Source: a virus | Lineage: Duplodnaviria; Caudoviricetes | Direction: 5' to 3' (one strand) | Length of the DNA stretch: 64,000 bases | Virus record (IMG/VR): IMGVR_UViG_3300013426_000018 | Location: 32,001 to 96,000 of that record | In this document: positions 1,036 to 64,000 of the stretch, piece after piece | Layout: each line of letters opens with the position of its first letter | How positions within the stretch are numbered: position 1 is the stretch's first letter | Notes under the pieces: model-generated | The model's database searches: none | What the model was told of the DNA's origin: nothing | What the model saw: only the letters and a program-made list of their open reading frames with translations | Position numbers and translations under genes: made by a program

Positions 1036-3045
1036 ACCGTGTCGACGCTAACCTCTAGAAGATTCTTTGGCCGCAAGATTATCAAGAACAGAATCATTCT
1101 TAAAGATATATTTTACATAGTCTTTACCTTCCTATGTCTTACCTCTTGACCAATTTATTTCTCTCTCTAATGGAGGTATTAGCCTACAAAGTTCCTATAC
1201 CTTTTGAGAAAGGATTTCCGCACTCTATTGTTTACCACCCGATGTCACAAAGAGATGAGCTCCTGGGTATAAGATACATTTTAATATTAAACCTAAAACT
1301 GTTAGAAATGATTTTGAATATGCCAAAATTTTCTATATATTACTATATAGCTTAGACTATATCATCAATGTTTATTTTTTCAAATCTTTTAAATCTTACT
1401 CCATAAAGGATAGTCGTTGAGCCCAATAGATAAGTAATCTATTTTGGTTGCTGATTGTCCCATCGGGAGTTCCCAGCATTTTAATAAATTTTTTCCATTT
1501 ACATGGCCCGCACATAATCTACGGGGAAAAGTTGCATACACGTATTGATAACGCATTACCGCACGCAAAAAACTTAAATCTTTACATTACTGTCTAAATA
1601 ATGCCAATATTAATTGCTCTATCTTTCAATAGAGAAGAGACTATATCTTTATCTTATGAATAAGATAAAATGCTTTTCAAAACTTCTTACTCCTTTACAG
1701 GATAGTCGTTGAACTTATGAATAATTTCTTTAATTTTTAATTCAATTTCTTCTTTAGACCAGGTGTATGGAATTATATATAACTCTATTCCATTATCAAT
1801 ACAATACTACTATTTAATCTTATCTCTTTTCTAAAAAGTTTCTAAACTCCCTTTAAAAAAGTTAGTTTCTTTATAATGCTATGCTCCATTAAATTCAATA
1901 GCTATTTTATAAATATTATTTTCTAAATAAAAATCAAATCTTTGTTTACTATTATTTAATCTTTTCTCTTGCTAAAAAGGAATACTATATTTTTGTAGAA
2001 TTGTTTTAATAAAAAATTCTCCATTACTTTCTTTTCGAGCACACTTTGGACAACTACTACGGCCATGAATAATATCTCCCGGGCAGACTTCCCAGATAAA
2101 ACCGCAATCATGTTTTAAAAGAACTTTAGTTGTTTGATTTACATAAGGACTTATTAATGTGTAAGTCCCCCTCTAACTATACTGATTCACTTCATCTATA
2201 AATTCTTTTGCTGTACGATTTCTTTTTACAGAAGTCTAACATCCACATCTCAAATGCCTCTTAAAATCTCTTAAAGTAGTGCATCTTACATGACCGCATT
2301 TTTTACATTTAACAGTATAATAAGTATGAGTACCTTTTACCTCAGTGAACAGAATAATATATTCGTTATTTAATTCTTCTAAGATTTTTTGTCTCTATAT
2401 AAGATTATGACTCTAACAATTACTACATCCATATTTTTTAGATTTTACAAAAAAATTTGAAAATTTATTTATTATAATAATTCTCTAACAGTTATTGCAT
2501 TTAACTTTTCCAGGTTTACCTAATCCGTTATATTCTAAAATATCAAAGTCTTCTAAAGGGAATCTCTACTTTATTCGATCTTGAATCTCTATTAAAGTTA
2601 ATTTTTTCATTATTCTCTCCTTCATAAGTGCTGATTATCTATTATTAGAACTTAGGCTTACACCTTATTCCATCCAAAAACTTTTTTCTACTTTCGTTCT
2701 TAATTAATTTCGAGAATTAAAAATTAATTAAGCATTTTGGCTTTAAGACTTCCCAGCGTTTAACATTTTTTTCTTTAACCCTTTTAGGCTAAAGGAGCTA
2801 TTTTTAACCCGCTAATAATAGAAAAACTTAAACTTGCCTTCGTTTTCCTTTTTTTCTTCTGGAGTAAATTCTTCCCCAGTAATGACTTTTGGCCCATAAA
2901 CCAAAAAATCAATAAATAAATCTGGGTATTCACGCCAGAAGGCAATATACTTGCGCAAAATGGGCTTTACTGCTTCAATACGTTCTTCTGATATGCCAAT
3001 TTTTTTCTTTGTATTAGATAACTCAAGCAAATCTTGGAGAGCCAT
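1036..3045 (-). CDS. terL: Terminase large subunit, N-terminal ATPase part, spliced (exons 3045-2807, 1572-1521, 1323-1036; continues beyond the window)
   Basis: Joined exons read in frame: ...KFFYY(Q)RV|FLRAVMRYQYVYATFPR|AYSKSFLTVLGLILKCILYPGAHLFVTSGGKQ(Q)SAEIL...SSRG(Q)RRHG. This contains an adenine-binding YQ motif and a Walker A-like PRAYSKS. Confidence 0.9.
1324..1520 (-). mobile_element. Group I intron 2 of terL, ORF-less, 197 nt
   Basis: P1 CCCGU/GCGGG with a U.G splice pair; P UGCUGGGAAC, Q AAUCAGCA, R CUCAACGACUA, S GAUAUAGUCU; terminal G at 1324. Removal restores FPR|AYSKS. Confidence 0.92.
1573..2806 (-). mobile_element. Group I intron 1 of terL, 1234 nt, carrying an endonuclease ORF
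   Basis: P1 GGGU|UA..UA GCUC; P CGCUGGGAAG, Q AAUCAGCAC, R GUUCAACGACUA, S AAGAUAUAGUCU; terminal G at 1573. Removal restores GU|U (Val)-FLR. Confidence 0.92.
1687..2610 (-). CDS. Intron-encoded endonuclease: Zn-ribbon repeats plus Vsr-like/DUF559-type PD-(D/E)XK domain (TAG=Gln)
   Basis: MKKLTLIEIQDRIK... with several CxxC motifs and C-terminal ESNGEFFI..RFDFYL..IAIEFNGA(Q)HY..RDKIK..YC..NGIEL..IPYT. The 3' end overlaps the intron R element. Confidence 0.85.
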
Positions 3046-61682: not shown

Positions 61683-61756
61683 AGCCGATTGGTGTAATAG
61701 TAGCACGAGAGCCTTTGAAGCTTAAGGAGAGGGAGCATAACCTTCATCGGCTGCCA
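61683..61756 (+). tRNA. tRNA-Gln(TTG)
   Basis: AGCCGAT/ATCGGCT; loop CTTTGAA; atypical T loop; CCA. Confidence 0.85.
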
Positions 61757-62929: not shown

Positions 62930-63020
62930 CGATGGGTGGCCGAGCGGCTTAAGGCGATAGTCCTGAAAACTATTGACCGTGATGAGCGGTCCGTCAGTTC
63001 AAATCTGACCCCATCGGCCA
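62930..63020 (+). tRNA. tRNA-Ser(TGA) with C33
   Basis: ATAGT-CCTGAAA-ACTAT, long variable arm, G73, CCA. Confidence 0.9.
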
Positions 63021-63124: not shown

Positions 63125-63214
63125 GCTCCTGTAGCTCAATAGGTAGAGCCCTCCCCTTATAAGAGAGACGCCCTCACAAGGTATATGATGGATCATACCC
63201 ATCCAGGAGCACCA
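63125..63214 (+). tRNA. tRNA-Ile(TAT) with enlarged variable region
   Basis: GCTCCTG/CAGGAGC; loop CTTATAA; about 19-nt variable region; CCA. Confidence 0.75.
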
Positions 63215-63283: not shown

Positions 63284-63361
63284 GAGTTTGTCGTATAACT
63301 AATATGTTCAGCTATATAGAGGTGCTGAAAGATATAAGTTTAAATCTTATTAAACTCACCA
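63284..63361 (+). ncRNA. Degenerate tRNA-like element with 11-nt anticodon loop
   Basis: GAGTTTG/TAAACTC plus ACCA; TTCAGC-N11-GCTGAA; ATAAG-TTTAAAT-CTTAT. Confidence 0.6.
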
Positions 63362-63736: not shown

Positions 63737-63859
63737 AAGGCACTTACAGCAATCTTTTAATATAAAAAAGTTATATGTTATGGGTTTGATTTCCATTAAT
63801 TCCAATTGGGATTATAGCTCAACTGGTAGAGCGATAATTATTTTAATTTATGTGCCTTG
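63737..63859 (+). ncRNA. Scaffold ncRNA copy 4 enclosing a circularly permuted tRNA body (T arm, closed acceptor, D arm)
   Basis: AAGGCAC..ACAGCAA..GTTAT ATGTT ATGGG-TTTGATT-TCCAT TAATTCC aatt GGGATTA TA GCTC-AACTGGTA-GAGC G ATAAT..GTGCCTT. Confidence 0.75.
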
Positions 63860-63887: not shown

Positions 63888-64000
63888 TGGGGAGTAGCGC
63901 AATTGGCAGAGCGAAGGTCTCTTGGATACTTCTGGACATCAAGTCGGGAAACTACTTGATGAATGTCGGCTAACTCGGTGAAACTCTTTTTTAAGACAAC
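63888..64000 (+). tRNA. 5' half of a tRNA interrupted in the anticodon loop by a group I intron (truncated by the window); candidate Gln/amber-suppressor tRNA
   Basis: TGGGGAG TA GCGC-AATTGGCA-GAGC G AAGGT CT CT.. has no 3' anticodon strand. It is followed by a P2-like stem CATCAAGT/ACTTGATG and a P-like AACTCGGTGAAAC. Confidence 0.7.

Follow-up and report, generated by a model that had tools for sequence, protein, structure and literature searches.

At the end of the analysed stretch of phage DNA (the window: 64,000 nt, spanning 32001-96000 of a virus record of 173,969 bp with a completeness rating of 100%), we identified a tRNA gene that continues past the window edge. From window position 63888 onward, the sequence most likely encodes an amber suppressor tRNA with anticodon CUA and Gln-type identity marks, interrupted at U35/A36 by a 220-nt ORF-less group I intron; the intron would be spliced out and the tRNA then charged with glutamine. 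We put the probability of this reading at roughly 0.88.

Results

The phage is a gut-type crAss-like phage of ca. 174 kb that reads TAG as glutamine. Its genome has a G+C content of 33% and encodes a PHROG 2739 portal protein together with giant virion ORFs. 'Zeta' crAss-like phages have been described as intron-rich, with genomes of 145-192 kb (PMC7886860), and the portal, giant virion ORFs and many group I introns found here fit that description. With TAG treated as a sense codon, ORFs of 150 aa or more cover 0.74 of the genome as against 0.34 under code 11, and 0.99 as against 0.11 of its first 10 kb. In-frame TAG codons number in the hundreds across the genome and are densest in virion genes. 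Two giant ORFs of 2473 and 2631 aa contain 73 and 44 of them, respectively, and the portal gene contains 16; several plus-strand ORFs between 97 and 138 kb have none. Portal TAGs fall at conserved columns (297, 306, 314, 417, 460, 471 and 478) where CAA, CAG or TAG is present in almost every one of 80 IMG/VR relatives. TAG therefore stands for Gln, and the phage in turn needs a tRNA with anticodon CUA.

Neither ARAGORN nor the Rfam tRNA model RF00005 detected an intact CUA tRNA, so that its absence, proposed in the earlier note for the window, extends to the whole 174-kb genome. The split gene itself went unseen by default ARAGORN, by RF00005 (window and genome) and by the Rfam gathering scan. 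When introns were allowed, ARAGORN miscalled it as tRNA-Ser(tga) i(34,220). Because the suppressor is split by an intron, default tRNA finders thus miss or miscall the gene, just as had been anticipated for standard tRNA scans.

The 5' exon of the gene lies at window 63888-63922 on the plus strand and reads UGGGGAG-UA-GCGC-AAUUGGCA-GAGC-G-AAGGU-CUCU, i.e., the acceptor strand UGGGGAG, the D arm, the anticodon stem strand AAGGU and the loop residues C32 U33 C34 U35. It equals positions 1-35 of the tRNA(CUA) of a relative, L028, described below. Directly 3' of it follow UGGAUACUUCUGGA, the P2 hairpin and then GUCGGCUAACUCGGUGAAAC (63965-63984). The bases from 63888 onward therefore read as the earlier note had described them, a tRNA 5' half running into group-I-like sequence at the window edge. 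The ORF-less intron comprises the first 78 nt at window 63923-64000 and 142 nt beyond, ending at position 1943 of the extended locus L001 (genome 96142, plus strand; L001 positions are window positions minus 62199). Its terminal G at L001 1943 stands directly before exon residue A36. The 3' exon is 41 nt long, ends in CCA and occupies L001 1944-1984 (genome 96143-96183, plus strand), with the sequence AAA-ACCUU-AGGUU-GUGGG-AUCGUAC-CCCAC-CUCCCCC-G-CCA. The continuation past the window hence contains the intron core, the terminal G and the 3' exon that had been predicted; where the prediction failed is position 72, which is a C and so creates a U1.C72 mismatch.

Joining the exons yields a 76-nt class I tRNA with encoded CCA and a 7-nt anticodon loop C32 U33 C34 U35 A36 A37 A38 (CUCUAAA), giving the anticodon CUA. 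The Gln-type identity marks of this tRNA are U1 unpaired with C72, G2-C71, G3-C70, G10, G73 and U35. The odd features, namely the U1.C72 mismatch, a D-stem G12.A23 mismatch and the T loop AUCGUAC, also occur in the intronless ortholog of L028. The anticodon arm resembles that of tRNA-Trp, and a second phage tRNA(CUA), one whose D arm is Gln-like, has the same acceptor stem. When the mature tRNA was compared with E. coli genomes, and the locus with phages in GenBank, blastn found no match in either case. E. coli tRNA-Trp(CUA) accepts Gln, and for this reason a Gln or a Trp origin of the tRNA body would both fit the reading of TAG as Gln.

Relatives of the locus were gathered via the neighbouring DUF2828/DUF7788 gene. 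One of them, the phage contig L028 (176,187 bp), is colinear with L001 over 1171-1723 and again over 1944-2159, and what is missing from it is precisely 1724-1943. Its positions 724-799 carry an uninterrupted tRNA(cta) that matches the joined exons at 76/76 nt, with flanks that are 77-78% identical, and positions 724-796 score 49.8 bits against RF00005 (gathering score 29). Such identity with an intact tRNA(CUA) excludes chance. Intact CUA tRNAs were also present in other relatives, all with the loop CUCUAAA and most with G73 and with position 1:72 either unpaired or a wobble pair.

Based on this copy alone, two registers can be drawn on paper, U35/...G/A36 (anticodon CUA) or U33/...G/U (anticodon UGA). 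In the latter, splicing after U33 (P1 GUCU/GGAC) and after GUAGUG would give the loop CUUGAAA and the RNA junction GGUCU/UGAAAACC. Four base pairs of GUCU with GGAC can indeed form, UGAAA is preceded by a G, and the ARAGORN intron call corresponds to this register. However, the intronless ortholog has the loop CUCUAAA, the C of GGAC is the first P2 base in all homologs, and three homologs (L124, L142 and L180) pair in the U35 register only. A UGA tRNA would further be without the long variable arm of a tRNA-Ser, and a normal tRNA-Ser(UGA) is already encoded at window 62930-63020. In homologs, the guide adjoining P2 is GAG where the exon ends in CUU (tRNA-Leu UAA) and GGA where it ends in UCU (CUA hosts). 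Taken together, the empty site in L028, the loop of the intact suppressors and the guide register place the intron at 35/36 and make the anticodon CUA. Splicing after U33, which the earlier note had left open, is thus ruled out at the DNA level by the intronless ortholog and by the guide register of homologous introns, and its probability is close to nil. The alternative it had put first, with a splice site after U35 and a 3' exon starting with A, is supported at the DNA level by the intronless ortholog. The intron accordingly lies between U35 and A36, and the RNA junction would be GGUCUCU/AAAACCUU.

Helices P1 to P9b of the intron were assigned by hand. All of them are canonical in this copy and follow the canonical order with a P3/P7 pseudoknot. 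In P1, the 5' strand U33 C34 U35 (63920-63922, plus strand) pairs with the internal guide GGA (63934-63936, plus strand), leaving a U35.G wobble at the splice site between 63922 and 63923; 92% of cells are paired and the register is kept in 13 homologs. The guide lies directly 5' of P2 and is GGA in all CUA-hosted copies (this one and those of L124, L142, L164, L173 and L180) and GAG in UAA-hosted ones. The P2 hairpin CAUCAAGU-CGGGAAACU-ACUUGAUG (63937-63961, plus strand) has 8 Watson-Crick pairs, 7/8 with changes on both sides across homologs. P3 is formed by GUCGG (63965-63969, plus strand) and its partner CCGAC beyond the window (L001 1855-1859), with 5/5 pairs covarying and 95% of cells paired. 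For P4, UCGGUG (63975-63980, plus strand) pairs with CGCCGA starting at window 64000 (L001 1801-1806), with 87% of cells paired and both-side changes in 4 pairs; the 63975-63980 strand was also aligned to P4 of RF00028. P5 is the hairpin UCUU-UUUU-AAGA (63985-63996, plus strand; 82% of cells paired, both-side changes in 4 pairs). The remaining helices are P6 (UAAGUCU/AGAUUUA), P7 (GAGCAU/GUGCUC, in a pseudoknot with P3 and 100% paired), P8 (CCUAAG...UAUGG receptor and a GUAA loop) and P9 (ACUAC/GUAGU, enclosing two inner hairpins). P10 is nearly absent (ca. 1 bp).

Comparison of the 13 short homologs supports this assignment. Overall, 83.4% of cells can pair, versus 34-45% with the partners slid, and 39 pairs changed on both sides, values that were reached in 0/500 shuffles. 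The Rfam group I model RF00028 aligned end to end with the intron at 18.6 bits (E=0.012, 302-nt search; gathering score 50) and placed P3, P4, P5, P6 and P8 as in the hand assignment. Homologs scored higher, at 46.1 bits (E=1.4e-8) for L019 and 29 and 24.5 bits for others. No RF00028 match to the intron was obtained in window-wide, genome-wide or 3.3-kb searches. On the strength of its assigned structure, and at a score below the RF00028 threshold, we class the insert among the group I introns, as tRNA-type and IC3-like. A resemblance to the Azoarcus IC3 intron may exist in the J6/7-P7 and J8/7-P7' strings.

Two further observations concern Rfam matches. Window 63928-63998 (guide-P2-P3-P4-P5), including CUGGAC...AGUCGGGAAA, weakly matches RAGATH-32 (20 bits, gathering 41.8), and this motif family may be derived from the 5' part of introns like the present one. 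RF00028 itself has at least 13 matches genome-wide, 7 of them above threshold, located in protein-coding regions and mainly at genome 11-36 kb and 120-127 kb. These matches in protein genes, e.g., window 1333-1530 (minus strand), differ in subtype from the tRNA intron.

A strict pattern built from both tRNA introns of the present phage had no match in IMG/VR. Using a looser pattern, from J8/7-P7'-P9, at least 80 IMG/VR loci were matched. The usual site of the family is tRNA-Leu(UAA) at U34/A35, used by most members among the matches listed, and some members carry an HNH-type ORF in P6. This genome contains two family copies only, in tRNA(CUA) and in the next tRNA; they share 63% pairwise identity, which does not single them out as each other's closest relatives. 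At least 5 other IMG/VR phages (L124, L142, L164, L173 and L180) have a family member at U35/A36 of a CUA tRNA. In none of these five did the tRNA cluster show an intact CUA tRNA, and reading TAG as sense sharply increases their local ORF coverage, e.g., from 0.10 to 0.81. Since the pairwise identities reveal no single group of CUA-hosted introns, we make no claim of one versus several retargeting events.

Further variants were seen within the family. In L164 (IMGVR_UViG_3300045988_146601), the CUA-splitting intron contains an HNH-type ORF ca. 700 nt upstream of the pattern match. This ORF has in-frame TAGs, one of them within its L-Q-L-D-H-I motif, and the endonuclease would consequently need the spliced suppressor; it could be translatable only after splicing of the very suppressor that harbours its gene. 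Four other loci (L111, L146, L150 and L153), with apparent exon boundaries CTC/AAACAA... and ...G/AAAA, appear to be putative tRNA(CAA) genes with C instead of U at the 5' splice site.

A decaying intron could instead have inactivated the suppressor, TAG being read by a host suppressor or by another mechanism. Such a loss would be compatible with the RF00028 score of just 18.6 bits and with an intron that has no homing endonuclease ORF, and splicing itself is here deduced from analogy. On the other hand, the exons are 100% conserved compared with 77% for the flanks, all core helices are intact in this copy and show compensatory changes in the family, and the genome has no other CUA tRNA and yet tens of TAGs in single ORFs. 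Split CUA genes moreover occur in the at least 5 other TAG-recoded phages. We therefore consider inactivation very unlikely, although a host-encoded suppressor may serve as TAG reader, and retain a functional split suppressor as the preferred reading.

The gene is part of a tRNA array with several unusual members. A second split tRNA starts 360 nt past the window end (L001 2160-2488, genome 96359-96687) and contains a 252-nt paralog of the intron at U34/A35 of the anticodon UAA. It belongs to class I, its variable loop (ACAGU) is short and it has G1.U72 and A73, unlike normal long-arm tRNA-Leu; such a short-arm tRNA(UAA) recurs with or without an intron in relatives L014, L015, L129, L140, L158 and L160. 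A tRNA-Lys(UUU) at L001 2641-2786 (genome 96840-96985) is interrupted between U35 and U36 by 71 nt (L001 2675-2745). This insert is itself tRNA-shaped, with a 7-bp acceptor stem (ATCTGGT/ACCAGAT), a discriminator and CCA, and scores 41 bits against RF00005; in close relatives L024 and L025 the tRNA-Lys is intact and without insert. This nested tRNA is of the same kind as the tRNA-in-tRNA of Lak megaphages (PMC6784885). RtcB was not found in the phage; an ORF of 659 aa gave just a weak match to the RNA_ligase domain.

Within the window, a tRNA at 63284-63358 (RF00005, 39.3 bits) has an 11-nt anticodon loop, UAUAUAGAGGU, and was missed by ARAGORN, as was the tRNA-Gln(UUG) at 61683-61753 that Rfam finds. 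A tRNA(UAU) at 63125-63214 has a long variable arm. A YrlA (Y RNA-like) match below threshold lies at 63759-63857 (32.7 bits, gathering 69), ca. 1.9 kb upstream of the DUF2828/DUF7788 protein. Similar matches were found upstream of this gene in the tRNA arrays of relatives (L019, 45.1 bits; L023, 29 bits). The DUF2828/DUF7788 protein may be Ro60-like; phmmer against the PDB gave no match for it. Further, the motif ACAGCAA(N)nTTT is located 15-60 nt downstream of several tRNAs (window 63035 and 63746; L001 2035, 2528 and 2815) and recurs in relatives (L124 and L142), and it is preceded by structured trailers. No over-representation of this motif, or of ACAGCAAYYTTT, is seen over the window as a whole.

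Discussion

The proposed pathway of suppressor maturation is based on known tRNA group I introns for splicing and on GlnRS identity elements for charging. The gene would be transcribed with the plus-strand tRNA array, after which the intron would fold and exon residues U33-C34-U35 would pair with the guide GGA adjoining P2, the tRNA's own anticodon stem keeping the exons together. Guanosine would attack after U35 and U35 would then attack after the terminal G, joining the exons into the loop CUCUAAA. By analogy, the intron probably splices, by itself or helped, and splicing would be an obligatory maturation step for tRNA(CUA). Host GlnRS would likely charge the tRNA, with its encoded CCA end, with Gln, and the charged tRNA would read the hundreds of in-frame TAG codons that are densest in virion genes.

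The earlier note went further and suggested self-splicing as the trigger of the code switch. This idea is left without support by L028, where the identical tRNA(CUA) is intronless and the genome is equally TAG-recoded, with 15 in-frame portal TAGs. Together with the occurrence of the family in tRNA-Leu(UAA) and the ca. 13 other group I introns of the genome, it makes the intron look like a tolerated mobile element, and not a regulator, even if its removal could still impose a kinetic delay.

Another form of the idea adds to the preferred reading that regulated splicing acts as a gate or timer of TAG recoding, responding for example to late infection, GTP/Mg2+ levels or a phage factor. Suppressor function would need intron removal in any case, the TAG-richest genes are virion genes on opposite strand arms, several replication-type ORFs are without TAG, and ribozyme-linked control of phage tRNA-Sup has been proposed for theta ribozymes (PMC10879173). 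Nevertheless, the recoded intronless relative argues against a gate, as does the presence of the same family in tRNA-Leu(UAA) and other sense tRNAs; the other group I introns fit a general spread of mobile introns, and the intron has no visible ORF or sensor element. We regard such a gate as unlikely. It is likewise doubtful that excision of the intron is a rate-limiting or conditional step in vivo, such that the ribozyme sets the onset of TAG=Gln reading and virion gene translation. If true, group I introns would act in phage tRNA-Sup genes as a class of RNA-level timers for switching the genetic code, and would also be why many recoded phages seem to be without suppressor. We return to the split suppressor with a tolerated intron.

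Group I introns in tRNA anticodon loops are known from cyanobacterial and chloroplast tRNA-Leu(UAA), Azoarcus tRNA-Ile(CAU), Agrobacterium tRNA-Arg(CCU) and cyanobacterial tRNA-fMet (PMC3984707). Like these bacterial and plastid introns, the present one is small (such introns measure about 200-250 nt), ORF-less and located in the anticodon loop. It shares with them a very short P1 with U.G at the splice site, exons held by the anticodon stem, the P8 CCUAAG...UAUGG tetraloop receptor and GNRA loops. Its phage relatives even occupy U34/A35, the classic cyanobacterial and plastid Leu(UAA) site. It differs in its host gene, a phage stop-codon suppressor, in its site at 35/36 and in the change of guide from GAG to GGA. 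Judging by the guide sequences, the guide of the family appears to have been retargeted from tRNA-Leu(UAA) to tRNA-Sup(CUA).

Suppressor tRNAs have been reported from TAG=Gln (code 15) phages including crAss-like, Lak and other phages (PMC7886860, 10.1101/2021.08.26.457843, PMC9523058, PMC12386605). In agreement with these, the tRNA(CUA) described here is located in a tRNA array and accompanied by TAG-filled virion genes, and both the loop CUCUAAA and G73 recur in the intact suppressors of its relatives. Unlike the published code-15 suppressors, its gene is in two parts and escapes default scanners. A suppressor tRNA interrupted by a group I intron was not encountered in the literature searched, most subscription journals being outside its scope.

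In that literature, the closest precedent for a ribozyme connected with phage tRNA-Sup is that of the theta ribozymes, minimal HDV-like ribozymes that adjoin phage tRNA-Sup genes and for which a possible connection to the code switch has been discussed (PMC10879173). Both systems physically couple a ribozyme to suppressor tRNA maturation, but theta ribozymes self-cleave at the tRNA flank whereas here an intron of the self-splicing type sits inside the anticodon. The 3' trailer of the present gene is structured (GUCUAUU...GCGUUCC-GCA-GGAACGC-AAUAGAC) and could not be fitted by eye to a theta/HDV-like fold. No HDV-like Rfam match was obtained in L001 at E<=1, a search in which Rfam possibly has no theta model. 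Lak megaphages contain 'enigmatic' tRNA introns, including a tRNA inside a tRNA (PMC6784885). As in Lak, we deal with inserts in phage tRNA anticodon loops that are defined against intronless alleles; the Lak inserts are unclassified, whereas the insert here is structured as a group I intron.

CrAss-like genomes with a clearly reassigned stop codon yet no detectable suppressor have been reported, for which host suppressors or very divergent tRNAs have been suggested as causes (PMC7886860, PMC12386605). In the papers on code-15 phage suppressors, we came across no mention of introns as a cause. The split suppressor offers a checkable answer for at least one recoded genome seemingly without suppressor, and intron-split suppressors may explain some of the recoded phages in which a CUA tRNA seems to be missing. 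Pipelines that annotate recoded phages should thus include a search for split tRNAs. A 2014 review placed every phage group I intron of its time in protein-coding genes (PMC3984707), compared with the sizeable family found here to occupy phage tRNA genes, whose pattern matched at least 80 loci. For the phage itself, a single ribozyme reaction would be a prerequisite for translating the TAG-rich virion genes and hence most of the proteome.
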